Shown here in pieces: positions 3,001-37,328 of a stretch of DNA of 64,000 nucleotides. The stretch lies in contig OZ316898.1 of assembly GCA_973895155.1 (NCBI GenBank), positions 5,133,079 through 5,197,078 of the forward strand, given 5' to 3'. Every line of letters starts with the position of its first letter. Position 1 is the stretch's first letter. Both the position numbers and the translations under genes were made by a program. A model generated the notes under the pieces. It made no database searches, was not told the origin of the DNA, and saw only the letters and a program-made list of their open reading frames with translations. This DNA comes from Marsupella aquatica. Its lineage: Eukaryota; Plantae; Marchantiophyta.

Positions 3001-3398
3001 GCACGGCAACAGAGCATAGCCAGCAAGTGGGAAGTCAAACGCCAACGTGTAGAAGAACTGAAGCATAAAATCAAGGATCTGGATACACAACTCAGCCAAG
3101 CCACCTTACAAGGGGATCCGACGACGGCTTCAAGAGAATCCACGCTGGAGACCGCAAGGTATAAGGAAGCAGCCGAAAGTAGGATCGGTCAATTAGAAGT
3201 ACAACTTGCAGACGCCTTGAAACAACGACCAGAGGGGAGCAAAGCGAACGGGGAGCTGGAACAGCTCAGGTCAGAGCATGACCAATTGTCGCAAGAATTG
3301 GAAGACAAGGAAAGATCTATTCTAGATCTCAGGTCGGAGGTGAGGAAGCTCAAGGCACAAGTCCGAACACAGATCACCCCAATTAAGAAACCAGGTGT
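1..3398 (+). pseudogene. Large retroelement accessory ORF (plant-transposon-type domain plus long coiled coil), over 1,130 codons with 3 in-frame stops; last codons displaced to 20460-20484 by the CACTA insertion
   Basis: ORFs 139-759, 784-1107, 1129-1818 and 1969-3435 share one frame that is open from base 1, with single stops at 757, 1105 and 1816. Removing the CACTA and one TGT restores ...KKPGVSGGNGVH*. Core motifs align by eye with the LTR-encoded ORF at 33749-36400. Confidence 0.75.
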
Positions 3399-3469
3399 CA
3401 CTAGTAGAAACCGGGGGGTATTTAGACCCCATTAAACGACTATTCAATACCGTATAGGACTTGGAAACG

Positions 3470-3780
3470 ACTGGGAAGGACTCTAGTCCTTTATAGGACT
3501 GCGAGTCGTATGTTTTGTTACTATAATCAACTGAGTCCTTTATAGAACTGGTTTATAAGTCGTTTAATAGACTGGATTTTCAGTCTATTTTAGTCTTTGT
3601 GTGGGTAGCTTTGGTGAGTCTTTTTCAGTCTTTTATGGGCTGCGATGGTGAGTCGTTGGGAACAACTCAAAAGGTTATGGAGGGTAGTCTTTAAATATAC
3701 TTTGTGGGTTTATAAAATGACTAAAGTAGACACTTTGTGGGGGTTTATAAAACGACTAAAGTAGACACTTTGTGGGGTAT
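3470..3780. repeat. CACTA subterminal short repeats (AGTCTTT/GACT motifs; GTAGACACTTTGTGGGG x2)
   Basis: Repeated motifs just inside the left TIR. Related TAGTCTT motifs occur at 20305-20350 near the right TIR. Confidence 0.55.
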
Positions 3781-4299
3781 GTACAAGTCTTTCATGTCAA
3801 CTGGAAATGAGTGATGAAGACCCCACTATACTACTTGGAATGAACTCACTCTTGTGCACAAATAACACATTTCATTCATGTTTTATTGTGTACTTGGAAT
3901 GAACTCACTCTATAAGGTCACCATTCACCATGTTAACATTAGAACCTCACACAAATTTTCAGAAAGCCATCTTCTATACCATGTACACTAATATGAATTC
4001 ACAGATTCAAACATCATAGACTACAAAGAAGGTCACAAAGCATTCGTCTATACCATACACACTAATACTGAATTGATACAAAACAGATTCAAGTATCATA
4101 GACAATCACCATAGAGCCATAGTTTGACATCAATCACTTGTTTCATACATACAGAATTCAGAAATATCAATGTCACACACAACGGCTCCTTCATCCTCTT
4201 TACCAAATGGAAAAATTGGTACAGATATTTCTTGGATTTTTCCAAGGCAATGTCAAAATGTAACACAATTCACATGATTCTATCTACACTTGTATTCAG

Positions 4300-7200
4300 T
4301 CACTGCAGACTAACACACTCTGATGGCCAGAGCACAAGAGATCCTACTGCATCTGCAATTATTTCTTGAGGTGGATCATCGTCTCTATTCGGAAATGGCA
4401 AATTACAATCAGATACAATCACTGTAGTCAACAACACTACTACATGGTCATCCGAGACCACTTTGCCATGGAATTTAGCATGATCCGGTCGCAAAATGCC
4501 TGTACCCACACATACCTGCGAGTCATTCTCCCATGATAGAAGATTATGGACTGGCTCTGCTGTGGCTATCACCTCCACCTTACCCTGGCTGTTTTTCTTG
4601 GCTTTCCTGGGTGGCTTATACATGACATTATTCATACCTTGGTTGCGAGTCATGACTTTGGCACGAGTGTTTTGTGCTGGTGATCGAGAATTGGCTACAC
4701 TCTTCTTCAAAGAATCTGCATCCATATTTGACACTTCCGATTGTGTAGCAGGATTTCCCTGCGACATCATCTCAGTATCTGCTAACATTGTACTTGCTTC
4801 AATTGAAGCATCTACAATCTTACTTGCATCCAATGTTGCTCCCAAGTTTCGACGTCGCTTCACCCTGCTCCCACTTGGTTGAGAGTCTGTCAACTCTGCA
4901 TCAACTACAATTCAATGCATTGTCCAACATAAGTGAATCACTCATCACATGTGCGCCATGTACATGTCACCATCCACAAAGTTGTCACTATCTCCTTACC
5001 ATTATGAACAGCCTTCTTCCCCTTCTTTGCCATTGCCATATCCTCCATGTCTGCTTCTGCTGATCAATAAACAGACCACAAGATTCAGGTTCAATCTATT
5101 AACCACTGAATTGTTTCTCAACAATGGTAGGAGAGGAATTTAAAGCATCAGCTTACCTGATACCTCCTTGGCTATGGTCACTGAGGCACTGGGCACATCT
5201 TTTTCATTGCTCTTTGAATCACCTGATACATCAATCATGATGTCACTTCAATTCCCAGTTTATCCAACCAATTCTTACAGAAAAGATTACCTCCAACCGG
5301 CTTAAGCTTCACAAAACTCCATGCACTTTTCAAATGTAATGTACTGGATCATAGCAGGTTACCTGTCTCAGCAACCTTTTTGCCATTCTGCTTACCGATT
5401 ACAGGGTCCAGGTTCTCTGCCTCCACTCTTCCTGCATTCAAACCATTCACTCAATTCATGAAAACTTACTTCTAACATTTGAACATAGGACACAATGAAC
5501 AATGGGCCTCTCTTGTTTCAAAATCCTCATTGCATACCTGTGTCAGATTTGCCAATTCCCTTTTTTGTTAACAAGGGCACACTTTGTACAATGTTGCCCT
5601 CATTGTTTGGTTGGGAACCACCCAATTTTTCAATCACAAGCTTGAAATTAGATTCCACTGATGCAAGAAGGTTCGCTACAGATGCCTCCACAATATCCAA
5701 ACGATCAGCCAATTTACTTTCCACTCGAGGGAGTCCACACTCTAATGACTTCAACCGTTCAGACATCTTTGTGAGAGTTGTAACAGTTCCCTGTCATAAC
5801 ACAGTTTACATATCTCAAATAATTGTCCCCAAGAACTGGTTGCTTACTTCCTACTACAATTCTTTCTGATGCTCAAGGCCAAATAGTCACAGAACATATA
5901 GAATTACAACATAATCACCTGTTTGGAAGTCACACTTGTCACCTCACTCCTTTGTTTCATGAACTCCTCTCTCACTTCTTGTGCTGATGGTTCTTCACCT
6001 GTCAATTTCTTCTGCAGTCCACATCAACATACATATGAATGAAACCAAGTGTTGATTGTCCATGAAAATGTAATAATGGTAGCAAGATGATAAGTTTGAG
6101 GCTTACTATTAGGCATGTCACTGCCTTACCAATTGTTCTTTCACTGGAGCATAACTTCCTCTCCCAGCCTGTGAAAGGTGTTTCACTTTGCCTCGAGCAT
6201 TTGACATCAGTTCACTCTTGCTCTGTCCAACCTCCGACATGAACCCTTTGATTAACCGTGTCCATTGATCCAGTTCCAATGATGGGGGTGGTGGCATTCT
6301 CCTGTTAGAACCATTGTCTATCCACATCCTTTTCAACCTATGCCTCTCTTGTTTCAAAATCCTCATTGCATAATCTGATATGCAATCTTCAACTGGGCCC
6401 TTACCATCATTACCAACATAGTCCCACCGTTCAAGAATGTCCTTGCAGATAGCAGCCCAATCAGCTTTGTTCTGACTCCTAAACTCTGTAATGCTCAAAT
6501 CTAACCAACGCAATACTTCTCCTCTTAGGTCAGAATGCCAACGGTTCTTACCATCACATGTGGGAGTTATCCAACCTTCGGAATTCACTTCTACTTTACC
6601 AAATTTGTTACTGTCTCCTGCCTTGGTACTCCCTGAAGCGCTACTAGGTGTCCCTCCACGGCCTGGTGTCCCCCCACGGCCTGGGGTCCCTCCACGGCCT
6701 AATCTCCCCCCACGGCCTGGATTGCATTGTCCAAACCTCCCTGGAGTCCCTGCACATTTACAGGATCCATTTACAGTCACTTACATTAGGTAAGTATGAA
6801 TCATAAATCCTGCTGCCAAATATACACTGGACTTCAGAGCAATTCTGCAATGACCAAGTTACCTCTCCCTTGGCGCATAGATGGTTCTGGACCACCTGTC
6901 CTATTGCTTTGTCTTGATGAATTAGGGCCGTTTCTCCCGCCTGTGAATGATTGCCGCCTATCTGAACGTGGATGGCCTTTGTTGTTTTCGTGATTGTCCC
7001 AATCAGAGTCTGCATACCAACAGGTACATGCCACACTCATGGACCTGTAAGATAAACTCTTTGCCCTAGCTACACATCAGATAAGTCCATATTGAGCTAA
7101 ATCTCTACTACCATCACAAAATCACTAGCACAAGGCACTTACTTGTCCAATCATCCTCCTCACCTGTCCATTGCCCTCTGTACCCGTCTCTACCACGCTC

Positions 7201-7660
7201 TGGGTGTTCATATTCATCCCATCCATCTTCTGCTCCATCATAGTCATCATCATAATTATCAGGCGTCCCTTGCCAATAACTCTGGCTCCTTCTAGGGTAT
7301 GGATTATGTGATTTCTCTCTAGCTGCCCACCTACCTGGGACTTGATGAGGGCCCTGTGCATCCTGCATAGGTGCATTTTTCTGTGAGCCCCCTGCATCTG
7401 GGTCTCCATCCATATCCAATCTTTCCTCTTCACCCCACTCTCCAAGCCCCATGTCTGTCTCCATGTCATCACCCTCTTCCCCCATAGCTTCTGCACAGCA
7501 CCCACAACCAAACAGGGAGAATCAGCACACTAAATTCAAAGTATCAATCAATTTCATGCATATCCAACTATCCTAAACATCATTCCAGGCAGCAATTCCC
7601 GTTCTGTGACTCTGTGCAGGTAGTCATCCTCAACCTCATACTTGCCAATCGCCAGCTGTT
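4300..7660 (-). CDS. Multi-exon CACTA TnpA-like protein (Ptta/En/Spm-type region plus C-terminal Tnp1/En/Spm-like domain); exon boundaries approximate
   Basis: Segment 6118-6780 (ERHRLKRMW...QWTRLI...SELMSNARGKVKHLSQAGRGSY) resembles Transposase_24. Segment 4300-4893 ends VGTGILRP...FHGKVV..DHVVVLL...LPFP...ADAVGSLVLWP, typical of the TnpA C-terminus. GT/AG signals lie between ORF pieces. Confidence 0.75.
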
Positions 7661-7662
7661 GC

Positions 7663-10600
7663 CTATTGCAAATCATCAACCTCATCATATTCCATTTGCC
7701 CAGGTTCATCATATGTCTCTCTCAATGTTAAGGGGATGTAGTCAGTCCCTGCCCGAGTTGGAAGTACAGTCTCATGACTAGGATGCTCGAATGCAGCATG
7801 GTCATCCAAACTGAACTCTACTTTACTTCCATCCATCCGCCTGTTCCGTGCTTGGCTATGGCATACCACCCTCCAGCCATGTGACTCCTCCACATCTGCA
7901 AAGAAAGCCTGTTCAACTTGGCTAGGGAAAACAAAAGGCTCAGACCATTCTGGTACTCTGGACCTAAAATTGGCCAACAAGAACCCATCATGATCACGCT
8001 TCATGGTGGCCCTTGGTCTCTGCCACTCTGATTTCACCCATGATCCCTTCATCAATATCACTGGGACACTTGTGTTACCATAATTCAACACCCAAATGTC
8101 GGTCAACTCCCCCACGTAACCCATCTTCATCCACCCCCTCTGTTCTTCAGAGGTTCTCTGCTCAAACACAGAAATCAAACCACAATCATATGATACACAA
8201 TGGTCACCCTGCTCATCCCTCACTCGATAATGATTTCCATAAGCTCTCATCCGTTTGTAGGTCAGAATAGACAATCGTGGTGGCACAGATAGAAGATACA
8301 AATCCTTCTCCATATCTGGGTGATGTCTACTATGCTCTCGAATTGTCACCCGAATCCACTGCTCGAACTGTGGGAAGGGATCCTGCTGCCCAGAGTGTGC
8401 AGCTTTTTGCATATCATATTCCCTGCAATATGAGGTACAGGCATAGTTAGGTCTAAACAACACATGACACCCTAAGATCACCCTTGGAACAGACAAGAAG
8501 CATCACAACAAAGGCAAGTCAATTCAATCACTCACCTCCACCATGGTTGCATAGGCTCTGTGTTTGCCAGCACATATGAATGAGCCTTGTCTCGAATTGC
8601 AACAGGCAGCTGAACAGCACGTCCCACACCTTCAACAACCTCGCCACTCACTCCATCATCTTCACCAGATTTCCAAACTCTTGTCATAGCTTCACCAGAC
8701 CCAGCCATGTACTCTGTTAGGAATCCCAACGTCTCATCCTTAATGTACCCCAATGCCATGGAAGCCTCTGGCCTGTAGTATGTTCTCACATGACCTTTCA
8801 ACAACTTCATGTATCGCTCCATAGGGTACATCCATCTGGTACTGACTGGCCCATACTGCCCTAGCTCTTCTACCACATGGATTAGGAGATGAGTCATAAC
8901 ATCAAAGAAAGCAGGGGGGAAGTATATCTCCAAGTCACAGAGGACATAAGCAGCATCCTGCTTCAACTGCTCCAATCCTTGGGGATCCCACACTTTCACA
9001 CATATACGGCGAAATACATTGCACAGTCGAAGAATGACATTACGGACTGGTTTCTGCATGAGACCTCTGAGGCATAGGGGCAGAATGTGCTGCATCAACA
9101 CATGGTAGTCATGTGTTTTCATACTGCCAAGTTTATTCTTTGTAATATGCTTCTTGAAGGCACCAGCATAGCCAGAGGGCACTTTCAGACAGCTCAATCT
9201 ATACAAGAATGTCTTCCATTCATCCTGTGTGCACACATAGGGAGCTTGGAACTTGAGAAGTACATTGGGATTGCTTGCATGGGGCTTCAACCAAAGGTGA
9301 GGGCGAATCCCCTTCTGTTGCATATTAGCTCGAACTGCTCCTGTATCTTTCTCACCCGACAAGAACTTCAGCAAGCTCTCACAAATATTTTTCTCAATGT
9401 GCATGACGTCCACATTGTGTTTGCTGGGCTCGAATTCCTGCACTCCACAAAGCAAAGAATTCAACAACAGAAACACTAATTAACCACATAGGAGGATTGT
9501 AACCAACATCAATCCACCATTGCTCCAATCTAAAATTGCAATCATACAGGGGCTGGAGGCTAAGTACATTACCCTCCAGTACTCCAACTCCAAGTCCATC
9601 AAGGTCTGTCTTTTCACACCGTGTTTCACCACTGGATCCTCAGGTTCTCGATCAGTGGCACTTCTCTTGTCCCAATCAGCCTTCCTGGCTGCCCACCTCA
9701 GGACTTGCTCTCTGGTGACCCTCTGTGGTGGGCCACGAAGCTTTGTTTTGTTGTTGAAGTGTGCAATTTGAGACCGTGTGTGCCTGTAAGGATGATCAAC
9801 AGGCAGATACCTTCTATGCCCCTGAAATTTCATACTGTGCAGGGCATGCGACCACTCACTTGTCACATTTTTCCCACATGGTGTGCACCCCACATAGCCC
9901 TTTGTCACTCGTCCAGATATGATGCCATGGCCTGGGTAATCTGCTATATCCAGCAAACAAATTGCATGCAGTCTAAAGGGGCTGGGTCGAAGAAGCCCCT
10001 TCAGAACATCATGGGTTAACACCCCTTCTATCCACAAAGTCTTCCACTCTTCCACTGCTGGAGCCAACATGATATCTATGAATTGCTCGGTCACAGAAGC
10101 TGGTCCAGGGATTAACAGCACCATCATGACAAAAAACCTCTTTGTAGTCATCCATGGGGGAAGGTTGTAATTTAGCAGCGTAACCGGCCAACATGAATAA
10201 CGGTTGTTTTTGTCTCCAAATGGGTTTACTCCATCCAGTGATAGACCAAATCGAAAGTTCCGCTTCTCTGCAGCAAACTGTGGCCACCTCTCATCAACAA
10301 ATTTCCAATGGTTGGAATCTCCAATGTGACGCTGCAGGCCATCACTGCTCTTGTTATCAGGAGTCCATGTCATCAGCTTGGAAATGGCAGGGCATCTAAA
10401 CAGACGTTGTAGTCTAGGAATGAGAGGAAAATGACGAAGAACCTTGGCAGGGTGTGTACATTTCCCTACATTCTTGTACCTGTGCTTACCACAATGAGGG
10501 CATGTCAATTTATCTGCATGCTCTTTGCGAAAGAGAACACACCCATCAGGGCATGCGTCAATAGACACATAGTTCAGCCCAAGGTTAGACATCAATTTCC

Positions 10601-11375
10601 TAGCCTCGTACATATTTTTTGGAATTGAATTACCATCTGGTAACACATTTCGGCGCAGGAAGGTCAACAACTCTGTCACAAATATATTGGGAACATTGTG
10701 ATTGCCACAGATGTTCAACAACAACACGACAAAACCCAGCTTGGAGCAGTTCGACCCCTCGTAGATAGGAATGCAAGCTTCTTTGATGTGTTTTGGGCCC
10801 CCAAACACCCACTCCCTCTCTGCTGCACCTTCCCCAATGTCAAAGTCAGGTTCAGCTTGGCCGTCGCCAATGTGTGGCTGCGGTTCATTGTCCTCTTCTG
10901 ATTCCACTATGTCGTAAAAAGCATCAAGGTCTTCAAAAATCTCTTGAACCATTCTTGGGACATCCATCCCACCGTCCTCAGTGACTGCCTCTGCATCTCC
11001 ATCTTGGTCATCCACGTTCTCATGTTGGACCCCAGGACCATCCTCTGCACAGTCTATGTCCTGCTCTACGTAGTCTCTACGCCTAGCTGTATTAGAATCC
11101 ACAAAGTCAGCTCTCCACTCTTCATCAGAGGAGTCTTCTTCTGCTGGTACATTCCAAACCCTCCACCGAGGGTGCCTTTCATGCCGCAGCAGGTGAAGGT
11201 GCACAGTGTTCAAACTCAATGACTTGAATCCTTGGCACTGTGTGCATGGGCATCTCATCCTCCTACTCCTACCTTGGGCGGCCCGGGCTTGTTCACGCAT
11301 CCACAATTTAGAATCATGATGCCTAATCCTAAATGGGTTGTGAAGAGGCAACCTTGGAGCCATCACTATACACAC
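7663..11375 (-). CDS. CACTA transposase TnpD/Tnp2 (Transposase_21 + DUF4218 + DUF4216), three exons
   Basis: Motifs CPCTQC, IDACPDGCVLFR, LRHFPLIPRLQRLF, LSLDGVNPF, DVMHIEKNICE, MKTHDYHVLMQ, FFDVMTHLLIH, WMYPMERYM and EPFVFPSQVEQAFF. Introns at about 9571-9439 and 8535-8424 (GTAATG..TGCAG, GTGAGT..TGCAG). No stops seen in exons. Confidence 0.95.
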
Positions 11376-11691
11376 GCACTCAGCACCCTGTCATTTTATT
11401 AATTGCAAGTGAAAAATACACTTCCTGTTAAGGATTTCACCCCCGACTGTACTTGCCAAAATACGTAACGTTCCAAAAAAACAAAAAAACAAAAAATATA
11501 GGTGCCTGAGTCATGTACCTATTCTCAAGTGAATGAGACAAAATTCCTAAATGTTTGAGGGTGTCAACTCCTCCGCTGTCCTCACATGTACTGCCTCTGC
11601 ATGTACATCCATGACCATATCAGAGTCCAATCATGTATAGTCATAGACACAGGTGCCAGGTGCGAGACCGGTGTGAGATGTCCTCATCTTA

Positions 11692-12261
11692 CTACCACAT
11701 CAAATACGGATACCAATCTTGTTGTCGATGCCACTCAGCCCTGAGGTACTCAGGCATGTACATTAAGTCATCAAGGTCTAAACCCTGCTCATGCCATGGT
11801 GGTCTTCGATCCGTGCCTACAAGCAGTGGCAGCAGTGCCCTCCATGGTGCACATGTTGCTACCAAGTCCCTCCACTGGGTACTAATTAGTCTATATTTGC
11901 AGATATCTTGTGCGCCAGACACCACAAGAACCCTCGGCCAGACATGTGTAAGAACTATATCATCTGCCAAATCAGGCAACAAGGAACCACCTACAGCATC
12001 GTGCTTGTCTAACTCATCTGCTGAAAAGTAAATGTCCTCTTCCGACTGTGCATCCTCATTCACCACAGCATTCACAACACATCCAAGGTCTGCAGGCATT
12101 ATCTCGGATGGAGCTACACTCTGTCTGGTTACCAATCCACACAAGTAAGCCCAAGCAGTAGCCATGCACGATGCAACCCGTAGGAGGACCCTACACAGGG
12201 CCTGACGGTCTGGAAGAGGCAGCATACCCACCAAAGTCTTCAGCCAAACAGAGCCCAGCAA
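11692..12261 (-). CDS. F-box-like protein (CACTA cargo)
   Basis: LLPDLADDIVLTHVWPRV...ICKYRLISTQWRDLV follows the F-box pattern LP.LP.D....I...L......R.V...W..L. The start codon is uncertain. Confidence 0.6.
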   Translation of the reverse strand: MLGSVWLKTLVGMLPLPDRQALCRVLLRVASCMATAWAYLCGLVTRQSVAPSEIMPADLGCVVNAVVNEDAQSEEDIYFSADELDKHDAVGGSLLPDLADDIVLTHVWPRVLVVSGAQDICKYRLISTQWRDLVATCAPWRALLPLLVGTDRRPPWHEQGLDLDDLMYMPEYLRAEWHRQQDWYPYLMW

Positions 12262-12401
12262 GTAGATTCACAGTCACACCCCACGCAGCAGGAAACAACA
12301 ATCACTTCAACTGCGACCAACCATGACAAGATGAGTTAGTTCAAGGATCACATTTATTACAAAATTGTGATTTATACAAAAATATGAGGGACTCCTACTC
12401 C

Positions 12402-13265
12402 TCACTCTCTCCCACCTTTGCTAAGCATACATCTCCGCTGAATCTTGGAGGGCCAGGCCTCAAAAATATCAAAGTCCCAAGCATTCTGTCGCTTCCCTCT
12501 AGCTGCTGATTCCAGAAGCCAATCAGGGGAAAGCACCCAAAGATTGTTGTTCATGACAAAATCACGCACTGTTGTCTTAAAGAATTTTCTGCATATTTTC
12601 ATGTATGACAGACCTACAACATGAGTGGAGGTTTCTGTTAGACTCTCCTCCACTGTCCCACCTAGCTCAACAACTATAGACTTGTACAGTCTGCACTTAG
12701 TCTCCCCAATTCCTTCTTCTGCAAATACCACACTGAACCCCTTCATAATGGTATTTCTCTCCTTGCCATGCTCATTCAATATAGCATCTGCACGCATAGG
12801 ATGGTGTCCTATGTTGACAACAGGTCCATATTGGACAGAAGCAAAGTTGGGTTTCTCTGCCGCTGCTTCATAGGCTTCCTTTTCAGCCAAAGCCTCTGTA
12901 GTGGCCTCCTCACTCTCCCACAACTCATATTGCTCAGTACTCTGTACACACCTATGTTTAACAGAATCGGTCAGCCAAGAGACTTCAACTACTTTTAGAC
13001 CTTGGTTGGTAATGGCAGAATCAATGAAGGACCATGACCACTTGTTCATCACATCCAGCCATGTCCCCGCAACAACATGTGTAGTCTGTGGAGTGATGTC
13101 CTTGACTTCAGTCCCATGGAACTCTGAGAATCGTTTTTGTACGATTGGCCAACTCACTTGGGTGAACCCATAGTGGCCAGGAATCAAAATGGCTTTGATT
13201 CCAGCCAACAGAGGCGGGTGGTCAACATTTGTACGTTTCCTAGAGGCCATGTACACACGGGCCAC
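12402..13265 (-). CDS. Tandem BRCT-domain protein, resembling the plant DNA polymerase lambda N-terminal BRCT (CACTA cargo)
   Basis: Two repeats: G....DITPQTTHVV...VVEVSWLTDS and LGGTVEESLTETSTHVV...VLSPDWLLES, which carry the BRCT GG, THVV and W..D/ES hallmarks. Basic N-terminus MASRKR. Confidence 0.85.
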   Translation of the reverse strand: MARVYMASRKRTNVDHPPLLAGIKAILIPGHYGFTQVSWPIVQKRFSEFHGTEVKDITPQTTHVVAGTWLDVMNKWSWSFIDSAITNQGLKVVEVSWLTDSVKHRCVQSTEQYELWESEEATTEALAEKEAYEAAAEKPNFASVQYGPVVNIGHHPMRADAILNEHGKERNTIMKGFSVVFAEEGIGETKCRLYKSIVVELGGTVEESLTETSTHVVGLSYMKICRKFFKTTVRDFVMNNNLWVLSPDWLLESAARGKRQNAWDFDIFEAWPSKIQRRCMLSKGGRE

Positions 13266-13850
13266 CTAATCACTGCAGACCGGAAGATAATGCGTTCACC
13301 TGATAATCGGAGGGCCCTTAAAATGCTGCGTTTATAACTTGGTCCAGTCCAGTCGTCTGGTGAGTCTCTGCTCCGATTCCAAACGGGAGAAATATTGGGA
13401 CAAACGTACTAGACACCTGCAAGCATGCACTTCATAGTTTGAATATGTGCCTTCACAATATTGAAGGTGACAAGTGCAATTGTTTTGTGATGCCACATAC
13501 AGATGTTTCGTATGGGGGCAGACATTCAATGAGAATACAAAATGTTGGTACACTTTAAGGGAATTCTCGCAAATTAAATAGCCTTGTAACTTATATGCTC
13601 ATAATGAGAAGTCCTGATTTAATTTAAGCAGTGTCATGTAAGTCGTGATCAAAATGATTGCAGAGTTAAAAAAGTTCCTAGAAGGCTTAAGGGGAGATTT
13701 TGAAGGCATGTACCCAGGAACAAGTAATGAACTTAGGGTACTTGTTGCCTAAGCATCCTCTCCTACAGAGGTCCTTCTTCTCAAAATTGGAATGTCTGCA
13801 ATCTCCAAGGTATCCACATCAGGTGCACTATGCATGTACATTATTCAGGT

Positions 13851-14531
13851 TCAAAGCCAAGAAATGTGATCTCTCATGGGAGTGTGCAAAGTAGGATCTA
13901 TGGCATGGCGATGACAATAGAAGATCCATCGATCAACACCATGTGCAGAGTGATCATAGATGTGTCTGTCACAAGCATAGCCTTCTGCTTGACGCTCCTT
14001 CAAACAATGAAAGTGCCACATGGTGGGACACCTAACACAGTGGACTATGTCCACCCAGAAATCTTCATCGTGCTGACCACATGCCTTGCACTTATGAAGT
14101 GGGCAAGTTGTGGCAAGATCGGGCAAACATGAAAAACAAAAGAACCTCACACAATATCTGTCAGGGCATTTCCTAACAAGTGGTGGAGCATCAACAGAGC
14201 CCTCATAAGACCCCAACTTCCCACACTGTGCACACTTAGCCTGCTTCTCCAAACAATCAGTGCACATCCAGCCTCCTTGGTGTGCTGACGGGAGGCCCAC
14301 CCCTGGACAGTTGTTTTCTGCAGCAAGGTCAGACTCCGGGTTGAGGTGGAAATGCCTCATGCAAGGGCCCTCACATATGGCTAAGTCACCACCATCGTCA
14401 CAAATGGCACAACAATGAGCTGCCTTCTGGAAAATCTGACTTGCGGAGAAGTTACTACCATCTGGCCCAACTACACCTGTGTTGCTCACCTCTGTCCCCC
14501 GCTTCTTGGCTCGGATTTTAGGGCGTGCCAT
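13851..14531 (-). CDS. EDM2-like composite PHD-finger protein (CACTA cargo), intronless, 226 aa
   Basis: CAICDDGGDLAICEGPCMRHFH...CGKLGS...TCPLHKCKAC...CVRCPTMWHFHCL...IFYCHRHAIDPTLHTPMRDHI parallels the Arabidopsis EDM2 PHD region as I recall it (CAICDNGG..CEG.CLRSFH...LGS...TCPLHKC..C...CRRCPKSYH..CL...IYC..H.ID..L.TP.RDH). Basic NLS-like N-terminus. Confidence 0.88.
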   Translation of the reverse strand: MARPKIRAKKRGTEVSNTGVVGPDGSNFSASQIFQKAAHCCAICDDGGDLAICEGPCMRHFHLNPESDLAAENNCPGVGLPSAHQGGWMCTDCLEKQAKCAQCGKLGSYEGSVDAPPLVRKCPDRYCVRFFCFSCLPDLATTCPLHKCKACGQHDEDFWVDIVHCVRCPTMWHFHCLKERQAEGYACDRHIYDHSAHGVDRWIFYCHRHAIDPTLHTPMRDHISWL

Positions 14532-15200
14532 GCCTACGCATGAGACAGATAGTACAATTTAGCAGAGTGCACAGACAATACAATTTAGTGCAGTGTACAA
14601 AAAGTACAGTGTAGCATATAGACTAGAGTGGCAATTGCTACTGCAATGAAATGTTCACACACATGTGCAGAGTAGACATACTTTTTGGTTTGTTGAGCCC
14701 ACACTAAAAACTGATCCCCTCGTACAATAGCTCCACCTACACCTCAATTTTGTGGCTATGATTCACCAAAGGAGATCTGCAACAAGATTTAATGCATTTG
14801 AATCACATATAACAGTCGTGACATGTAAAACAGGCATTTTTTGAACAGGATTGGTATCAAGCAGTGTGATCAGGGTTGTAATTTATACATCCTAAATAGG
14901 CTATGATAGTGAATGAGACAAATAAGTTAGGCATAAATCACTTTTTCCAGGTTATCACATGGCCCATTAATTCCAGTCTTTGAAAGGAGACTTTTAAGTG
15001 AGCTTGCTAGCCTCTTAAATTAGGATATTGTACTTAGTGCAGCCATAATAGGATAAGTTATGTACTGTTGACCCTAAACCCTGGACCCAAAATTGGTCAT
15101 AATTCAAAATCTTAAGTAAATATCCTCTCTGTTCAAGTCAAAGTGTTAAGTTATAGGTCAATGGTCTCTGGTTTGTGCATGCGGTGTGACAAGTGGTCCT

Positions 15201-15650
15201 CTAGAGCGTGTGATCCAAACATGTGTAGACACCAAAGTGACCGGTGGTGGGGTCTGGGAGGGCAGGACAAGTGACATTGCCAGGCACACTGCAGGATGGC
15301 GAGTGGTTCCAGATGATACATTGTGCTCTGTGAAAAAACCGACATCCAAGAGAACGGTCATCCAACTCTAGGCCAGAAGCCCTACAGGCAGGACAGTCAT
15401 ATTGGCAACTGTGCACACACCCTTGGGCCCTAATTTGTGGCGGGTCATGTACAAGAGACAGAAATACCAAGGATGTTGGGAAGGGTGGAGAAGCAGGTAC
15501 AGGCCGACTGTAGTTGTTCCTGGCAACAACTGGGTACTCAAAGTACCATGCAGACTGGGCTGGAAGGATCCCAAGTCTGACATACTCAAGGCGCAACATC
15601 TCTGCCTTGCGTGCAAGCCGCACATGTTCAGCGTTGCGGGTCCTCACCAT
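15201..15650 (-). CDS. Cys/His-rich hypothetical protein (possible fourth CACTA cargo gene)
   Basis: 149-aa ATG-initiated ORF on the same strand as the other cargo genes, with CxxxCxxxCxxC and further Cys/His. No family recognised. Confidence 0.35.
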   Translation of the reverse strand: MVRTRNAEHVRLARKAEMLRLEYVRLGILPAQSAWYFEYPVVARNNYSRPVPASPPFPTSLVFLSLVHDPPQIRAQGCVHSCQYDCPACRASGLELDDRSLGCRFFHRAQCIIWNHSPSCSVPGNVTCPALPDPTTGHFGVYTCLDHTL

Positions 15651-18600
15651 AAGTGTTGCTTTTGTGGAGATGTCGTGTGTTCACGTCCTCTGATAAGCAC
15701 CTTCGATCAGCAAGGTGAGCAGGAGCTGTACTTGCCTCACCAACAGCAACCAACCTTAAATTATCAGTTCCCACTCACTGTGTCATTCCATTGGTTCCAG
15801 CTAGGGGTCACAGTGTAAACATAGCATGAAACACTCCTAATCAACTTGCTTACAAACTACAATATCCAGAAAGAGTGAAAGTCTCACCCTCCAGTGAGCA
15901 GCAGAGAGGTAGTTCACTAGATGTGTTGATGTGCAGTTAAACCTCCACTATTGCTTACTTCTGGTGTATGCTGCTCAGAAGAAGACATATTAGTAGCAGC
16001 AAATTGCAAATAATGGCCATAAGCAAACCGTGAGAGTTTGCAGAATGCTACGACAAATCCATCACAGCAGTGCTCCACAGGAATGAAACCAAGCAAAATT
16101 TGGTGACCTCGGCCAATGACAAGGCCAATGTAGTGAACAATCCTTGACCGATCAGGATATGGATTGGAATTACAATTAGTCAGCTCTTCTTCTTTGTTTT
16201 CTAACTCTGGGGGAAATGAGCATGACCAGGGAATTCTCTGAGAAATAGAAGTGCACAGGGAAAATGAAATTGGCTCATTCAGCTCTGCAAGATGGACCAT
16301 TGCAGCATACTTGGACAGTTGTTCCGCAATACATAAAATACCCTGACTTACATGCAATTGATACAATCTGCTTCTGTTGGCTGTCCTACAGCTCATGGCA
16401 GTGCCGTTGGGACAGGGTAAGTGAATATTGCCATAGCTGAAGCACATTGAGCTTGCAGCAACAAGTGAAGGAGCATGGCCAAAAGCAGAAAAGACAGACA
16501 GGTTTTACAAGAAGAAACTAACAACCGCCAATCTGCTCAAATCCGCTGCATAGATCAAACCCTCCGAACTACACAGCCCTCCTTTGAAAACAATCCAATG
16601 TGCTTTGGCTGGTGGATGACAAGGACTGGGAGAAGAGGAAACGTCTGCACAATCAATCCAAATGACGGTACATAGAGACCAGGCACAGAGAGGATTTGTG
16701 CTTAGACAAAAACCACAAATTGTAGCATGGGCGCCATAGCATTCTAGACAAAGCACAAAACATAGAATCTATGAATCTATGACTCATGGACTAACAAAAT
16801 GATTGGGTAGCATGGCAAAAGGAAAGACAAATTTCAAAATGACAACATGGCCCGTTTCCACCATTCATTTGACGTTGCTAGGTGTCCGTAAGATGACTGA
16901 CCCACAAACAATCCCGACAACCTCATCCGACAGACTGCTTTTCTAGTGTGAAGAAATACATGATTACAAGCAACACCACGCCTCATCCAAGCAGGGAATT
17001 GAAAACATAACCATGTCATTCCTATATTGGACAGTGTCCTCTGCCATTGCACTGCATAGTTGTTATTCCATGTTGGTTGTCAACAGTTTGTTGGCTTGCC
17101 ACAACCTAGATAGAACAATAAAATATTGTACATGAATACAACAAGAAAAATCTGCATACAGCGATGGCCCGGTCACTTGAGGAAAAAACAAAACTAAGAA
17201 GGCAGGCACACGGGCAACCGAGAAAAAAAGCTAGTGGCGCCTCGCGGAGAATCCAGAATGGTAATGCCCTCGCCCAGAAGCTTGGGAAACAAAAGAGAAA
17301 AAAGCAAAAACGAGCTACCGACCACCGTCTTGACCAGGCCTGCCACAAGGTATGGCTGGAGGCTGTGGTCCCCCCCTCAGTAAAGAAAAGGATGCAGGTT
17401 GGAGCACGGGGCACAAGGCATGTTTGGATCCAGGAGGAGCAAAACAGTAATGTCAAGCAGGAAGTGTGGAGAGACCAATCAGTAAACAAAAATAGGGGAG
17501 AACAAACATACATCAGCAGCAACAGGAAACGAGAAAGTTGATTTAGGAGGGATTGTAGGGAGAGAGCTTTTGGTGGGCTCGGCTGTGCGTGAAATATCGG
17601 GAGATAGATGCGCGAGAGAGTGAGGAGGGTGGCAAGCGGAAGACGGGTTGGGACTGGACCCTTGGTGCCGGTGGGTAATATATGGGGTTTCAGCAGACTT
17701 GGGGCCAGTTTGAGGAGGATTGAGAAGCGCGCACCCCACGTTCTTGGGTGGTGGTTGGGTGGGGTTTTGTTTGATTGAAGAAGAAATCACCATTCTCTTC
17801 TAGAAGAAAGAAAATCACAGGAAATAGTGGACGGGAGAACAAGGCATGTAATAGAGAACAACAAGGCATGTAATAGAGACAGTGCGCAGCTCAGCTCCGA
17901 GGTCACACTTTACGATGCACAGGGGGTCCTTGGTTGCACGTAGGAGAAGGACTGAATCACTGTGGCTGCTCTTCTCTACTATCGAAGCACCCGGCTGGCA
18001 GCTCCGCAAACACTGATCGTAGCTACAATCTCTACACCGTTGATTGAAGAGCAGCTGCAGCACAGTAAGGAGCTCCCACAGCCTCCCTCTTCAAAGCTCG
18101 GTTGACCTAGCTCTACGATCGACGGAGCATGGGCGCCAGACAAAGCACAAACTGTACCATGGAGCTGGAGAAAAACACAGAGTAATTGAAGCCTAACAAT
18201 ACCCTTCTCAGCTCCTGATTGAATGAGGAAAAACACATTACAAGACACATTGCAGGCAATAGGATTTTAACAATGAAGTCTCGCCTGTGCTGACAGAATA
18301 CCTGCTTACAGCCACGCGTTGCTCATCCTCCCACAGTTCGGTGGCACACTATCCAGATGGCATGACGCATGCCTTAACTTATGACGATTTGCGCAGCTCA
18401 AATCAAGTAGGTTGTCCCCACAAAAAGACAGAGGACAACAAAGAAAAGCAATGTAGCCGTGATGTCTTACCAGCCCTGACAATGGGAGCTTCAAAGGCGG
18501 TGCACTATGGCTGAAATGGCAGCACGCTGCTCGAACACTAAAGCAACACAAAACTTGGACTCTCACCTTATGCAACTCCTGGCTTGTATTCAGCTGGCGT

Positions 18601-18969
18601 TGGCCCACTCTAAGCTCCTGCGCCGCTCCGACTGCTAGTCGTTCTGTAGACGGTCTGTATCCTCCCTGACTGCAGCTCCTCCCCGCCCCCAGCTCGTCAC
18701 CCGCGTCTTCTCCCCAATTTGTGGTGAGCTCCTCCTCGACCACAGCACCCTAAACTGCTTTGCCCAGCCTCTGATGGCCTTCACGTTGTTACCGATTGTC
18801 GCTCCCCACAAAGTCCACAATCCATAAACCAGGCAGATAGTGCGCCCGTAGAACAGATGCAACCCGCATGCAGCTTCACCAGCTCAATGGCAGCTCAACA
18901 GCTTAAGGGTGCAGCAAAAGGGCGTTGAATAGGTTGTCTCACCTCACCCTTCGAGAGCCGGTCATTGCA

Positions 18970-20250
18970 GCATCCCTAAACTCCCGATCCCTCTTCTCGG
19001 ATTCCACAGAGCCGACCACAAGAAAATGGGAACACTAAACCTCACTGTAGAGACGTTCCCACCAAGATTACACGGAAAACCTTGCTCCGATCCCTAAGCT
19101 CCCAATCCCATCGAGAGAACACGATAAAACCTTGCTCCAATCCCTAAACTCCCGATCCCACCAAGAGAACACAATAAACCTTGCTCCGCAAGTTGGGAAT
19201 GTGGCGGGATCCCTAAACACATCAACAACCTGCTAAGTGTAAGCAAAGTTGCATAACCGGCTTGTTCCCTTCCAACGGTCGCGCGACTCGGGTGTCCAAA
19301 CGGTACTGCAAGCGGTACAGGCCCCTAGCTTGGGATACCCTTACCAAAGTCACTGGTGTTGCCGACATGGTAACGGCAAGATTATCCTGACCCTCCATAA
19401 ACCCCCTCCATTCACTCAAGTGTTGTGAGTGACAACTTAGTGTAGTGTCGCTAAACAAATACTTTGGCCTTAGCAAATATCTGTGGTGATCGAACTTCAT
19501 TAAACCAAACCTCTTTTGGTCACAAATAAGGCCATTTAATGAGTGATGCCCCTTGTCATCACCCTCTTAATTTATGCAATTACCCTTCCTGAACACAATT
19601 GAACATTGTCCAAATTGCCTACCCTCATGAATAATTTGTCAATTATCTTTCCCGACATATATGATGTCAATGGACATGATGGGGAACATGATGTCAATGG
19701 ACATGATGCCAACGATCCAATGGTTCCTAAACCCCCATCCCCTTAACATGCAACCCCCGACCCTTGACATCAAACCCCCCTAAACCCCCTTTAGTGAAAA
19801 CCCAGCCACCCCCTAGCCTTGACATATAAACCCCCTAAACGTCTTCACAACTCGACTGTGGCCAGACTATCTTTGCAATGCCAAGGGCCATTTTTAGAGT
19901 GCATGCCGCTTGCAAGCTCAGGCTCTCAAGATCCTCCCAAGGCAGCAAACAAGTTAGGGTCCCTAAACATGTTCCTTTACCCTAAACCATTGCGTCACTA
20001 TTTCAATCGAGTGTTCTTTTCCTGGACAACCCCCTAACCCTAAACCCACACCCCCTTGAGACCGGTACAAATCTACCTTTGTGCATCTTGGCCTTTTATT
20101 GATGGAGTTAGTAATCGATCCCTCCGTAGTCCACCCTCCATGAACCTCACTCCAAAACCTTTTTTGTCACAAATAAGGCCATTTATTGAGTTATGCCCCT
20201 TGCTATCTCCCTCTTTACAGAATTACCCCTCCTCAACATAAGTGAACATT
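18970..20250. repeat. Internal repeats in the CACTA right arm: about 52-bp AAACCTTGCTCC..TCCCTAA units (19075-19190) and a diverged ~130-bp duplication (about 19490-19610 vs 20140-20250)
   Basis: Direct sequence comparison; TCACAAATAAGGCCATTT occurs twice. Confidence 0.7.
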
Positions 20251-21741
20251 ACCCATGATGTGCTAGACTATTCACCGTTCACAAAGTAGCAAGGTTACTT
20301 CTCATAGTCTTTTAGTGAACCATAAAACACTAATAGTCTTTTGTAGTCTTCAACAAAACTGGTGCAATGGGTGCGAGTCGTTTCAAGTATGGAAAAAGGA
20401 CTTAGTGGGCTTAGTCCTATAAGGTATGGTCTAAATTGCCCCGGTTTCTACTAGTGTGTTAGCGGGGGCAATGGAGTCCATTAACTCGATGTTAAACGCC
20501 CAGTTTGACTTGCGATTAACGGACGTCTAACTGCCTTCTTCGCAGTATCTCCCGCTTAAACGATCAACCGACCTTCTAGCGGGGTACTCCCCTCTTCCTC
20601 TATATAGTCCCCGTAAGTGAATCCTACCAAGTGCTCTATAATGTCTAACTCTTTCTTCCACCTCTTGGGCACGACTGCTTCAGTCAACACCAGACCCTCC
20701 CTGTAGATGATCTCGATAAACCCACACCAGTAGCGGTAAGTAATTAAACAGATGGGAATACTCTCCTGGCGTAACGCTCGGGTAATCAGGTGGGAACCGA
20801 TGGAACAGATCCACAATTCCAGTGGTCTTAACTTAATCAAGGAGCAAGGCTTGTCCACCTTACTGTCTACATTCATGGTTGTTATAGTAGCAGTGACCGG
20901 GTTAGGTCCTGCTATCCCTCAATCGGCCTTCCTGGCAATCGATCTGTCTTTGGCTAAATCAAGCAATTTAAATAGAGGTATCCGTAGTAGGACCCCCAAT
21001 TTAACGGTTGACCCTGTATGTTGAAGGTGTACGACGACCAAGGTCACGTCCTGGATACACACAATCTCCAACCAGACCTTGCTTCCCACGAGCTGTCTGT
21101 TAAATCGCTACCTTAACGTGCTAAACCGTAAGGTCCTCACTCGTAGTGAGACGATTTCCATTCATCCCAGCGATTTATGATTAATCGACTTAACACATGT
21201 TCCTAACGAGTACTTTGCGCAAACTCCCATAACCGCACTCCTCGACTCTCAGTATTAATCATGAATGCCTCTCCTTCTTCGAATGACTTTCAAAGTTACT
21301 GCTTCTTCTGACTTGATTCACAACATTCTTCCAACGTTGACTCTGGACTCTTACTCACCGCTCAAGCACAAGGTAACGAAGTTCCTCTGCACTCTATTGC
21401 ATTCATACACATCTCTTTATAATCAAAAACTACTCAAAACAAGTAGGGACACTAATACAAAACGCTGGTAATCTTGAGGTGAGTCCGGCTCTACCTCTCA
21501 ACCAAGCTCCTAGCAAAAAGTGACAAAGCGCCTAGCGCTCCACAGCCTCTAAATACCTATGCCTTGCGTCCGTCTTTGCTGAGGTTTCTAACTACTTTCT
21601 GGGGTGCGCCGACTTCAGTTGGATGGTTCGCCCTTCAGCCGCGGTCTCCTGCGCTAATCTGCCAAGAAACTCTAACTGTCTCTTGCCAAGAACGATGAGC
21701 GAGCCAAGAACCGTGTTTACATGTCAAGAAGATTCCCGTGG

Positions 21742-23224: not shown

Positions 23225-24393
23225 TGTCCGGGTGACCGTGTTTTCTGGCAAGAGCATGTTGGCTCTTATGAAGTTAACCTTGCATGCTCATAAGTTCTAC
23301 ACTAAAATCAAAATGATAATTCTAGTAACAAGGGTAGTGGGTATTAAGAAAGGTTCAGGTGAAACTAAAATACTGTTAAACCCTATTTCACCATACTTGC
23401 GGACCAACACATCACGAAAATTAGTTTTCTTACGACATATGATCCTAATATCTCCAAGAGAAAATGAAACAGGAATATCATCCGGACTCCTATTCAGATC
23501 CATGACTTCAATAAAGGACAAAGATGATGCACTCCCACTCCTCTCGGTACGACACCACTGGGTATATTATTGGCTCGTTAGAAACCATAACAGCAGTTGC
23601 AAACTGAGCTCCCGACTTAGATGTTGCCTCATAGATGGTTTGTCTAAAAGATGGATTCTAATCAAAAACGGATTACGAAGGGGAAGATTAGGGATAACTC
23701 TCTCTCCTGGATTCATGATGGCTCTCCTATTCCTTTGCTATCCGGGCCAAAGGACGCCCCACCCCTACATTCCCAAAGAAACCTTATTCCCTAAGGTTCC
23801 ATCTATAAGTCTACCACTCATTCCTTTGCTATCCGGGCCAAAAGACGCCCCACTACTATGTTCAAGGCACAAAAGAGCTTCACAACCTTGAATGATAAAC
23901 ACTGCGGAATGAGGGGAGAGTGCCCCTCATCACTTTATTTATAGTGCACACCAAGAGGGCATGGATCAAGCCTAAGCACTTGAATGAAGGCCAAGTGTCA
24001 AACATCTAATACCTAAGAGTGTGCTAGTACTGTTCATAGTTGGTGAAACTACTTTTTGTAGGTGGAACTACCATGCGTTGGTGGAACTATTGTGCGTTGG
24101 TGGAACTACTATGCGTTGGTAGAACTACTGTGCGTTGGTAAAACTACTGTAGTTGGTAGAACTACTATACGCTGGTGGACCTACTGTGCGTTGGTAGAAC
24201 TACTGTGCGTCGGTGAATATTATTGTAGTTGGTGGAACTACTCATATGCATTGGTGGAACTACTATAGTCCGTTAATATAGCTAAAAAAGTTTAATAAAG
24301 TCTAAATTTAATAATCTAACTACTAAATTACTTATATAATCTATAGCATATTAAAACAAACAATTTTTTATAACTTAAGAGAAAATCACGACA
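23225..24393 (-). repeat. 5' LTR (about 1.17 kb) of the minus-strand element, with TATAAATA near 23936-23943 and a 19-bp tandem repeat (GTTGGTGGAACTACTGTGC) at 24040-24265
   Basis: TGTC...GACA termini, adjacent PBS, minus-strand TATA box and a sharp junction with the tandem array. Confidence 0.7.
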
Positions 24394-26660
24394 GCGTCAA
24401 CTGAACCTAAACAACTATATCCACTGAACCTTTCTTGTGGATATTTGGATATGGTACGCGCTCAGTAAATCTATCCAGTTTCCTTCTCACACGCGACTAG
24501 TCGCGTCAACTGGTCCTAAAAGGAACCTTACCTCCTCTAACAGAACCAGTCACTAAGAGAGCTACCTCAGACGCGACTGGTCGCGTCAACTAAACCTAAA
24601 CAACTATATCCACTGAACCTTCCTTGTGGATATTTGGATATGGTACGCGCTCAGTAAATCTATCCAGTTTCCTTCTCACACGCGATTGGTCGTGTCAACT
24701 GGTCCTAAAAGGAACCTTACCTCCTCTAACAGAACCAGTCAATGAGAGAGCTACCTCTGACGCGACTGGTCGCGTCAACTGAACCTAAACAACTATATCC
24801 ACTGAACCTTCCTTGTGGAGATTTGGATATGGTACGCGCTCAGCAAATCTATCCAGTTTCCTTCTCACACGCGATTGGTCGCGTCAACTGGTCCTAAAAG
24901 GAACCTTACCTCCTCTAACAGAACCAGTCAATGAGAGAGCTACCTCTGACGCGACTGGTCGCGTCAACTGAACCTAAACAACTATATCCACTGAACCTTC
25001 CTTGTGGAGATTTGGATATGGTACGCGCTCAGCAAATCTATCCAGTTTCCTTCTCACACGCGATTGGTCGCGTCAACTGGTCCTAAAAGGAACCTTACCT
25101 CCTCTAACAGAACCAGTCAATGAGAGAGCTACCTCTGACGCGACTGGTCGCGTCAACTGAACCTAAACAACTATATCCACTGAACCTTCCTTGTGGAGAT
25201 TTGGATATGGTACGCGCTCAGTAAATCTATCCAGTTTCCTTCTCACACGCGACTGGTCGCGTCAACTGGTCCTAAAAGGAACCTTACCTCCTCTAACAGA
25301 ATTAATCCGTGGACCCCATGTTCATCCAAGGAATGTTTGTGTGATTAAGTGAAATCAATTTTCATCAAGGTGGTAACCAACGGTTTTGAGTCTCCCGATA
25401 GTGTTGGTGCGTGCTCATACAAAAACAAATGCTCAAAAGATAGAGATCTATCAAACGGAAGGTTGAATGTGGAGGAATTGAGCTTTCTTATAGGTTTTGC
25501 TTACACATTGGAAAAATCATCTTTCAACCATTCTTGATTGATTGTTTGTGAGTTACATTGAGCATTACTGTCACAAGACAGACTAGAGCACAACACTCAG
25601 CTGTTGGCAAAAAAGCGCTTGTCAATTTGGTGGGAAGAACACACAAAACAAACGAGCCGTCACTTCAAACAAAGAATTTGTAGTTATTTTTATTTAAGAA
25701 AGTTATGGTGTGAGGGGAAGACCAACAATTGTTTCTTTGACATAGAGGCTCCATTTGGCGTCAACCTATGTTTAGAGTGAGCTTTAGTTGAAGACTATCT
25801 AAGAAATGCGAACAATTCAAGCCGGGAAGCAAACATTGTTTAAATTCAAGCAAGGAAGCAAACATGAGTATCTAAATTTCTCTAGCTTTCCAATGAACCT
25901 AACATTGATAGATTTTGTCAAGTACTAAAAAGATGATGAATTTTTAATTTTACTCTAGCTTTCCAATGAGGGACATTGAGAAATTTTATCAAGACATTAC
26001 TAAAGAGATCACGAGTTTCTAAATCTTGATCTTGAATTTTCCAATGAATCAAACATTGGCAAATTTTATCAATTACTAAGGAGATTTATTATTTAGTTTT
26101 ACAATGTGAAGCCAAATGGGTTTTAATTATGTACATTTCTATCAATTGATTTTTTCAAATTTACTAACAATTAAAAAATATAAGCATTTTGATATAAAAC
26201 ACTGATATATCTTTGACAAACATCAAAATGGTAACTTTGTTTTACTAAATGACATCTCTTCTTTTGTATTTTGTTTTTTTTATGTTTAATATTTACAGCA
26301 TGGCGCCCCAATAATTACGTTGTTTTTGCCACAAACAGGAATGTGCATGTTTGTTATTGTTAAAAGTAGGATCATTCCTGTTTGTGGCTAGTTGTGATGA
26401 TGTGGCGCAACCTCATGGCAGAGAATTTGCAAGAGACCCCTAATGGGGGTCCGTAACCAGTCAATGAGAGAGCTACCTCAGACGCGACTGGTTGCGTCAA
26501 CTGAACCTAAACAACTATATCCACTGAACCTTCCTTGTGGAGATTTGGATATGGTACGCGCTCAGTAAATCTATCCAGTTTCCTTCTCACACGCGACTGG
26601 TCGCGGCAACTGGTCATAAAAGGAACCTCACAATATTTTCACGCGACTGGTCGCGTCAAC
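24394..26660. repeat. 189-bp tandem array (about 4.8 units, then about 1 more after a 1.15-kb insert), each unit with two ACGCGAC-NN-GTCGCGT palindromes
   Basis: Unit starts at 24394, 24583, 24772, 24961 and 25150. The array resumes in register at about 26456. Confidence 0.95.
25302..26454. mobile_element. 1.15-kb non-autonomous AT-rich insertion with short asymmetric inverted termini and a terminal hairpin
   Basis: Splits CAGAA|CCAG of the array with AA on both sides. Left end TTAATCCGTGGACCCC, right end GACCCC-TAATG-GGGGTCCGT. Confidence 0.75.
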
Positions 26661-30238: not shown

Positions 30239-30546
30239 ATGCCTTTAGATCCGTAATTGTATCTTCCTGTCTCACGCGCAATCGTATCTTACTTATGAAG
30301 TACCAAGTACGAGCTAGAGTTTGGGCCTAGCCTTCTAGCTTCTACGTCGTAGACCCTGTTATCCCTACACCCTCTGACTAAGGTCACGCGACATGCCTTT
30401 AGATCCGTAATTGTATCTTCCTGTCTCACGCGCAATCGTATCTTACTTATGAAGTACCAAGTACGAGCTAGAGTTTGGGCCTAGCCTTCTAGCTTCTACG
30501 TCATAGACCCTGTTATCCCTACACCCTCTAACTAAGGTCACGCGAC
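30239..30546. repeat. Tandem duplication of about 154 bp
   Basis: ATGCCTTTAGATCCGTAATTG...AAGGTCACGCGAC is repeated twice, nearly identical. Confidence 0.9.
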
Positions 30547-37296: not shown

Positions 37297-37309
37297 TAGC
37301 CTTTGTTTT

Positions 37310-37328
37310 TGGCGCTAGATGGAGGGGA
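37310..37328 (+). promoter_or_regulatory. Primer binding site (TGGCGCTAGATGGAGGGGA), 13 nt downstream of the LTR
   Basis: Starts with TGG after a T-rich spacer and resembles the TGGCGCTAGAAGGAGG PBS of Tat-group elements. The tRNA identity is not determined. Confidence 0.75.

Follow-up and report, generated by a model that had tools for sequence, protein, structure and literature searches.

What a protein of two BRCT repeats does inside a cut-and-paste transposon is the question raised by an open reading frame in the genome of Marsupella aquatica. The stretch of DNA analysed, referred to here as the window, comprises 64,000 nt of contig OZ316898.1 (positions 5,133,079–5,197,078, forward strand), and the frame spans 12402–13265 on its minus strand, encoding 282 amino acids when counted from the ATG at 13250. 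This ATG is the likely start codon rather than the GTG at 13265, because the closest homologues start there, and a bacterial-style GTG start was dropped on the same grounds; an AG acceptor-like site lies 22 nt 5' of the ATG. Since 282 open codons would arise by chance with a probability of about 5e-7, given the composition, a chance frame was also dropped. The parts of the gene are as follows.

12402–13250, minus strand: twin-BRCT ORF, 282 aa, intronless (from the ORF list, Pfam, homologue starts and structure model)
12921–13217, minus strand: BRCT repeat 1, residues 12–110, with the Trp-rich family signature W64/W73/W92 (model, profile)
12759–12920, minus strand: linker, residues 111–164, a predicted helix (114–137) and then a poorly conserved, low-confidence loop (model, alignment)
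12456–12758, minus strand: BRCT repeat 2, residues 165–265, with the human Pol lambda BRCT as top single-domain match (profile, alignment)

Two diverged BRCT repeats had been proposed here by a first-pass annotation, and they are recovered by profile, by fold and by mutual comparison. Pfam BRCT (PF00533) matches the ORF in two stretches (52 bits, E 6.5e-14), and profile and fold together place it twice in the BRCT superfamily, with fold matches reaching Z 16.4. An AlphaFold model built from an 18-row alignment (mean pLDDT 75) contains two confident BRCT folds, at about residues 12–110 and 165–265, joined by a helix (114–137) and a low-confidence loop (135–164); this placement sets the linker at about 54 aa, close to the ~50 aa first suggested, while a pTM of 0.44 means that the mutual placement of the two folds is not fixed by the model. 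Compared as proteins, the repeats give a local score of 79 (z 10.7) that none of 1000 shuffles matched, and at the DNA level no similarity between them is left, so that a recent tandem duplication was dropped. The earlier suggestion of an old duplication followed by divergence agrees with a tree of 23 repeat rows, in which 13 repeat-1 and 10 repeat-2 rows fall on either side of one branch (91/92); as far as this tree can be read, the repeats split before the family radiated. Built without the near-duplicates P0012, P0018 and P0019, and without P0010, P0014, P0015, P0017, P0020, P0021, P0023 and P0024, which lie outside the alignment, the tree has no outgroup and therefore dates the split as old without naming its donor. 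The absence of a polymerase domain, likewise asserted at the outset, stands: Pfam finds none in the ORF or in any of the 16 aligned family members, the polymerase X catalytic domain that defines Pol X is missing from the ORF, and a frameshifted or spliced continuation into such a domain was dropped, as the frames downstream close within about 25 codons.

Among 1.84 billion representative proteins searched, 17 matched at E ≤ 0.001, of which 16 are short family members and the seventeenth, at the E threshold, is a 931-aa multi-BRCT protein; P0025 was added as a further member from a search of proteins of 290–2000 aa, and look-ups of clusters contributed others. In 10 such look-ups 16 members were listed, all of them named no more precisely than 'hypothetical' or 'BRCT domain'. 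Seven distinct full-length relatives, at 16–61% identity, follow the same two-repeat plan, which is not universal in the family, since P0021 seems to hold two repeat-1-like units. Identity to P0001 amounts to 66/99 in repeat 1, 67/101 in repeat 2 and 9/27 in the loop, the corresponding ranges for five distant full-length members being 21–32/99, 18–32/101 and 0–3/27; as aligned, the family conserves its BRCT domains and not the linker. The long-term protein-level constraint read from these alignments is clear, in keeping with the long retention that had been postulated. An acidic C-terminal tail, present in P0001, P0025, P0006, P0004 and P0022 and containing a Y-[VM]-T-[ST]-[SC]-E motif in three of these five, is missing from the window copy, whose protein ends with a short basic tail (12402–12455, minus strand), possibly by frameshift or replacement within this subfamily. 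Locus scans for the family found 0/171 metagenome stretches (query A5), 0/75 in prokaryote genomes and 0/95 in viral contigs, and a scan of metagenomes with P0022 found 1/34 stretches. A sequence of 1404 bases, L001, holds a copy of the distant relative P0022 at L001:2–937 with an internal stop; over this length it has neither a transposase match nor a match to the element beyond the ORF, and its GC and CpG depletion are similar to the element's. P0012 and P0023 are pieces of the P0022 cluster; a family present in many copies, some of them broken, would be expected to yield such fragments.

That the ORF is carried by a cut-and-paste element, a premise of the first-pass annotation, is confirmed by the complete CACTA element surrounding it, whose features are these.

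3399–20456, minus strand: complete CACTA (En/Spm) element of 17,058 bp, with every recognised ORF on this strand (terminal inverted repeats, target-site duplication, transposase domains)
3399–3416, no strand: terminal inverted repeat starting CACTA, with target-site duplication TGT at 3396–3398 (repeat pair)
20439–20456, no strand: terminal inverted repeat ending TAGTG, with target-site duplication TGT at 20457–20459 (repeat pair)
4303–6780, minus strand: probable TnpA/ORF2 exons, weak (Transposase_24, PF03004, E 0.061 at 6118–6780)
7663–11363, minus strand: TnpD-type transposase, three open frames that in-phase GT-AG introns could join (Pfam, splice candidates)
11692–12261, minus strand: ORF of 189 aa with a weak F-box-like stretch (Pfam PF00646, E 0.081, below cut-off)
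13851–14531, minus strand: cargo ORF of 226 aa, three NSD-type PHD fingers, intact and intronless (sub-cut-off Pfam matches in NSD order)
15201–15650, minus strand: Cys-rich ORF of 149 aa, matching no family (ORF list, Pfam)

The terminal repeats form a perfect 18-bp pair, TGT flanks both ends as a 3-bp duplication, and in public sequencing run X2 one contig skips 17,061 bases, exactly the element plus one duplication, and is the pre-insertion form of the site. TnpD is recognised by Transposase_21 (PF02992, E 8.9e-59) and DUF4218 (PF13960, E 2e-27), its frames containing DUF4216 (PF13952) and Transpos_assoc (PF13963) besides, and its candidate introns at 9572–9438 and 8535–8423 are in phase and of GT-AG type; within the TnpA/ORF2 region, 4303–4911 has no Pfam match. 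Along the minus strand the Cys-rich ORF (15650) is followed by the triple PHD ORF (14531), the twin BRCT (13250), the F-box-like ORF (12261), TnpD and the TnpA exons. AG acceptor-like sites lie 2–22 bases 5' of each of the PHD, BRCT and TnpD start codons. En/Spm elements use alternative splicing from a shared leader, and we infer from this analogy that the twin BRCT may be expressed in the same manner, as its own spliced exon.

Autonomous CACTA/En-Spm elements, as defined in the available part of PMC4158355, have the same CACTA/TAGTG ends, 3-bp duplication, TnpD and probable ORF2, but the element of the window additionally carries no fewer than three complete ORFs (twin BRCT, PHD and F-box-like), located upstream of TnpD on the same strand. 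Its 5' part (16500–19900) has lower depth and several deletion joints among public contigs, and 17402–17541 is repeated as an inverted copy at 42952–43092. Pack elements are non-autonomous and carry recent gene fragments. Coding sequence of host origin within CACTA ends, as the accessible portion of PMC13317346 describes for Pack-CACTA, is a likeness to the present element, which differs in its open TnpD frames, its whole ORF and the fact that no close host donor was found; a Pack-CACTA identity was dropped, the TnpD frames being open and the ORF whole and conserved. Elsewhere in the window, 33282–52435 contains nested LTR-retrotransposon-type sequence, in which long direct repeats are separated by 11.9 and 15.5 kb, with matches to zinc knuckle, protease, RNase H and integrase. 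Tandem arrays of 19 bp and 189 bp occupy 24020–26793 and 30239–30861, a palindromic motif common to 24490, 26637, 30535 and 30805 may mark the ends of another DNA element, and at 56216–61382 inverted arms of 95 bp (86%), separated by 4.4 kb and accompanied by short subterminal repeats, may belong to a non-autonomous TIR element. Long open frames of 608 and 293 codons at 31036–32859 and 53186–54064 (plus strand) have no Pfam match.

Public sequencing runs bear on how regularly the element carries this gene. Eleven runs from 9 studies contain part of 11600–14600, and 6 of them were compared with the window. In run X1, which may be the window's own source so that its depth match is indicative, the main contigs have a depth of 1768–1931 over the twin-BRCT ORF and 1817–1949 over TnpD, rare variant contigs standing near 16; in X6 the corresponding depths are 376–477 and 397–451. 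A second, P0001-like subfamily in X1 (22 differences in 142 bases, depth 1608, or about 1600–2000) has K69, N77 and K82 in common with P0001. Depth is not copy number, and the runs were found through this region; still, because ORF depth equals transposase depth in two related subfamilies, the twin BRCT probably belongs to the regular make-up of the element, in a repeated family carrying both genes. Runs X7 and X9, covering 10/30 and 14/30 of the ORF bins, mostly at low depth, are not counted as evidence of range.

The same runs also reveal recent change of a kind that a mere passenger would accumulate, namely a captured gene, once useful or never useful to the element, that is now under relaxed constraint in this subfamily. 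Between the window and X6, 29 substitutions taken from 40 of the 81 listed rows are spread 9/11/9 over the three codon positions; they alter 26 codons, 8 of them synonymously, which does not depart from the neutral expectation (binomial p 0.25). Repeat 2 and the linker differ at 27/431 positions, intergenic DNA at 27/452 and the TnpD core at 24/1007, repeat 2 plus linker thus differing more than the TnpD core (p 0.0005); recent change in repeat 2 looks indistinguishable from neutral, this repeat being either relaxed or fast-changing in the subfamily. Loss of the acidic tail in the window copy, the stop codon inside the L001 copy and the many family matches that are single-repeat pieces are in line with such a passenger as well. 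However, the frame is kept across 16–61% identity with conservation confined to the domains, and the indels listed between X6 and the window keep the frame (all 3 rows sum to two 3-base insertions). Moreover, X6 contigs of repeat 1 differ at 3/237 positions versus 27/431 for repeat 2 and linker (Fisher p 0.003), in a comparison of partial cover where short contigs tend towards greater likeness. A passenger therefore appears improbable, and the reading that we prefer with good, though not full, confidence is that of an accessory gene which selection on the element has maintained.

The neighbours of the twin BRCT suggest one context in which such a gene could act. The 226-aa ORF matches PF23011, PF22908 and PF23004, all below their own cut-offs and yet in NSD order, its PDB matches (AIRE, NSD2) are weak, and it is likely a second accessory gene encoding a histone reader, as judged from its sequence; in all four runs compared over the element, the highest read depth falls at bins 13632–15927, a region that includes this ORF. 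CpG observed/expected is 0.37 in the element and 0.27 in the twin-BRCT ORF, against 0.73 in the rest of the window, so that the element has been methylated, and the CHG value of 1.03, which is not depleted, suggests a host where CG methylation dominates. Together with the repeats, these values would tentatively point to a non-seed land plant. With a PHD reader and an F-box-like protein beside it, the twin BRCT could be a protein-binding adaptor serving anti-silencing or insertion steering, with no part in end joining. Three consecutive cargo ORFs on the TnpD strand and the past methylation indicated by CpG depletion would suit this role, as would the variability of Ku-contact positions across the family (see below), but BRCT folds are mainly repair-linked, and the F-box match is below the Pfam cut-off. 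Even with TE-encoded anti-silencing factors on record (PMC13317346, in the part available), this is a reading we consider rather improbable, about on a par with the passenger.

If the gene is instead an accessory gene with a repair-type fold, its resemblance to particular BRCT domains becomes the informative point. The first-pass annotation had assigned the second repeat to the plant Pol lambda pattern, quoting a THVV...RKF...WLLES..RG motif that is found in the ORF. By sequence, human Pol lambda is the top single-domain match of repeat 2, while repeat 1 and the structure searches favour other proteins. A profile of 4 repeat-2 sequences gives its top single-domain score to the human Pol lambda BRCT (33.0 bits, the 92 aligned positions being broken by a single gap of two residues), ahead of BRCA1 (27.8), REV1 (27.5) and Rtt107 (19.5 bits, best domain), a lead of about 5 bits; by whole-chain score Rtt107 comes first. 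The repeat-1 profile scores PARP4 at 27, REV1 at 25 and Pol lambda at 15.7 bits, and a mixed-repeat profile REV1 at 31.8 and Pol lambda at 29.5 bits. Structural alignment of repeat 2 places the PARP4 BRCT first (Z 16.4, rmsd 1.4, 93 aligned, 14% identity) and XRCC1 BRCT2 next (Z 15.3), and Pol lambda is missing from the best 50 entries. The comparison with PolX, ligase IV and XRCC1 structures that had been proposed thus finds repeat 2 nearest to PARP4 and XRCC1, while in the Foldseek search the tandems of ligase IV and Rad4 come out on top, the ligase IV match superposing poorly (rmsd 24).

At the residues through which Pol lambda contacts Ku, K185/L188/Y189 of repeat 2 align with human Pol lambda R57/L60/F61; repeat 1 has S/I/V at these positions. 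Among 8 distinct full-length repeat-2 rows, K/R stands at R57 in 4 and L/M/V at L60 in 4, the R57 and L60 equivalents being kept together in only 2/8 (the window and P0001), and P0004 has an R at the L60 position, a substitution that proved damaging when made in human Pol lambda, according to the available text of PMC12056208. Likeness to Pol lambda was measured against the human protein only. Searches for plant Pol lambda, weak evidence in themselves, found none among proteins of 563–2000 aa (1 match, a fungal BRCT protein) or of 290–2000 aa (4 matches, 2 family members and 2 reptile BRCA1), and the ESM Atlas, where all matches were generic BRCT clusters scoring no higher than 0.90, returned no plant Pol lambda. 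Plant Pol lambda presumably shares a 'KFGK'-like segment with repeat 2. Taken together, repeat 2 resembles the Pol lambda BRCT in its full-length alignment, its GIG motif and its conservative residues at R57/L60/F61, whereas the protein departs from Pol lambda in having two BRCTs and no lyase or polymerase domain, in being intronless and transposon-encoded, and in a repeat 1 that is not preferentially Pol-lambda-like. Derivation of the twin BRCT from a Pol lambda BRCT is accordingly favoured by the sequence comparison, if only by a little.

Other donors and other uses of the fold have to be weighed against this origin. The gene could also encode a fragment or imitation of a host protein that has tandem BRCTs of its own, the ligase IV C-terminus being the most plausible model, and its product would then compete for XRCC4 or Ku; ligase IV BRCT regions indeed occupy the top Foldseek row and several others (E 5e-11), with a linker of ligase IV kind in length and helix and a VIA Z of 12.8 (193 aligned). 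Yet these Foldseek matches have rmsd 19–24 and TM about 0.3, repeat 2 scores 20.6 bits against ligase IV versus 33.5 for Pol lambda, the repeats resemble each other as duplicates would, and no ligase IV linker family appears among the Pfam matches of the 16 members at E ≤ 1, leaving such a mimic a doubtful candidate, less probable than either the passenger or the chromatin adaptor. Two BRCT folds per chain are also found in the ligase IV C-terminal pair and in the BRCA1/MDC1 tandems, but whole-chain superposition is poor (rmsd 13–24, and 16–18 for BRCA1/MDC1), the model orientation being open (pTM 0.44), and the BRCA1-type inter-BRCT linker is about half the length of the 54 aa found here. In the BRCA1 alignment of repeat 1 a Tyr precedes the Gly and a Ser stands at the BRCA1 Lys position; a phosphopeptide reader of BRCA1/MDC1 type was dropped, as repeat 1 lacks in this alignment the Ser/Thr-Gly and Lys that we take to be phosphate-pocket residues. 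The BRCTs of PARP4 and REV1 are nucleic-acid-binding, and their place at the top by structure, and by sequence for repeat 1, raises the notion of a BRCT pair that holds transposon or break ends directly. Against it, the repeats of the window have net charges of −1 and 0 (−10 to +7 across the family), and a common fold at 14% identity gives no function; this is the least credible of the readings considered.

Under the preferred reading of a selected accessory gene related to Pol lambda, a mechanism may be sketched from what is published on that polymerase. In the part of PMC12056208 available, the human Pol lambda BRCT binds the Ku70/80 bridge via R57 and L60, R57/L60/F61 carry its recruitment to Ku, and catalytically dead Pol lambda with an intact BRCT lowers survival below that of the knockout, an effect reversed by R57E. 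The Arabidopsis Pol lambda BRCT binds XRCC4 and LIG4, and the enzyme has been linked to repair at excision sites and to the integration of T-DNA (PMC4444747, PMC12707071, both in part), while excision breaks are repaired largely by Ku-dependent end joining, as stated in the accessible sections of PMC3894167 and PMC4561436. In this scheme a Pol lambda BRCT would have been captured by the element and then duplicated. At breaks made by the transposase, the resulting protein would bind the end-joining complexes of the host, either on Ku, at the site used by Pol X, or on XRCC4-LIG4, and, lacking a polymerase, would act there as a competitor. The most likely pay-off would be less end joining and more sister-copy repair at the donor site, since copying from the sister chromatid would restore the element there and raise its copy number, as expected from established transposon biology; in a mirror version, the twin BRCT would be a tether bringing end joining to new insertions. 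A role in host end joining is a tentative proposal, somewhat short of probable, and equal reserve applies to the full explanation, in which a selected accessory gene, likely derived from Pol lambda, would serve as a polymerase-less competitor at end-joining complexes. Bolder, and on present evidence unlikely, is the view that a plant CACTA lineage turned the Ku-docking domain of Pol lambda into a twin-BRCT effector within a long-kept kit of repair decoy, histone reader and ubiquitin-ligase adaptor.

VANC is an anti-silencing factor of Mutator-like elements, and retention of a non-transposase gene in a DNA transposon is in itself a familiar theme. In published examples, Mutator-like elements carry ULP1 proteases and anti-silencing factors, and fungal DNA transposons carry TET/JBP. 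These act on SUMO or DNA methylation, whereas the fold of the twin BRCT is one used for docking in repair. A literature search outside most subscription papers, Repbase records and supplements, where an annotation may exist, found no transposon reported to carry a BRCT gene, and an intact, well-formed BRCT cargo within an intact CACTA element has apparently not been described before. Even without an end-joining function, these proteins constitute a conserved BRCT group that has no name and that surveys of BRCT proteins would miss or count as host genes. The copy gain of cut-and-paste elements depends on host repair of the donor break, and the known accessory genes of plant transposons address silencing, not repair. 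A BRCT pair encoded by the element would give it direct influence over the choice of repair. A compact end-joining competitor active in plants could moreover serve gene targeting. If the bolder view is true, this CACTA lineage would encode an end-joining modulator of its own, steering host repair choice at sites of excision and insertion.
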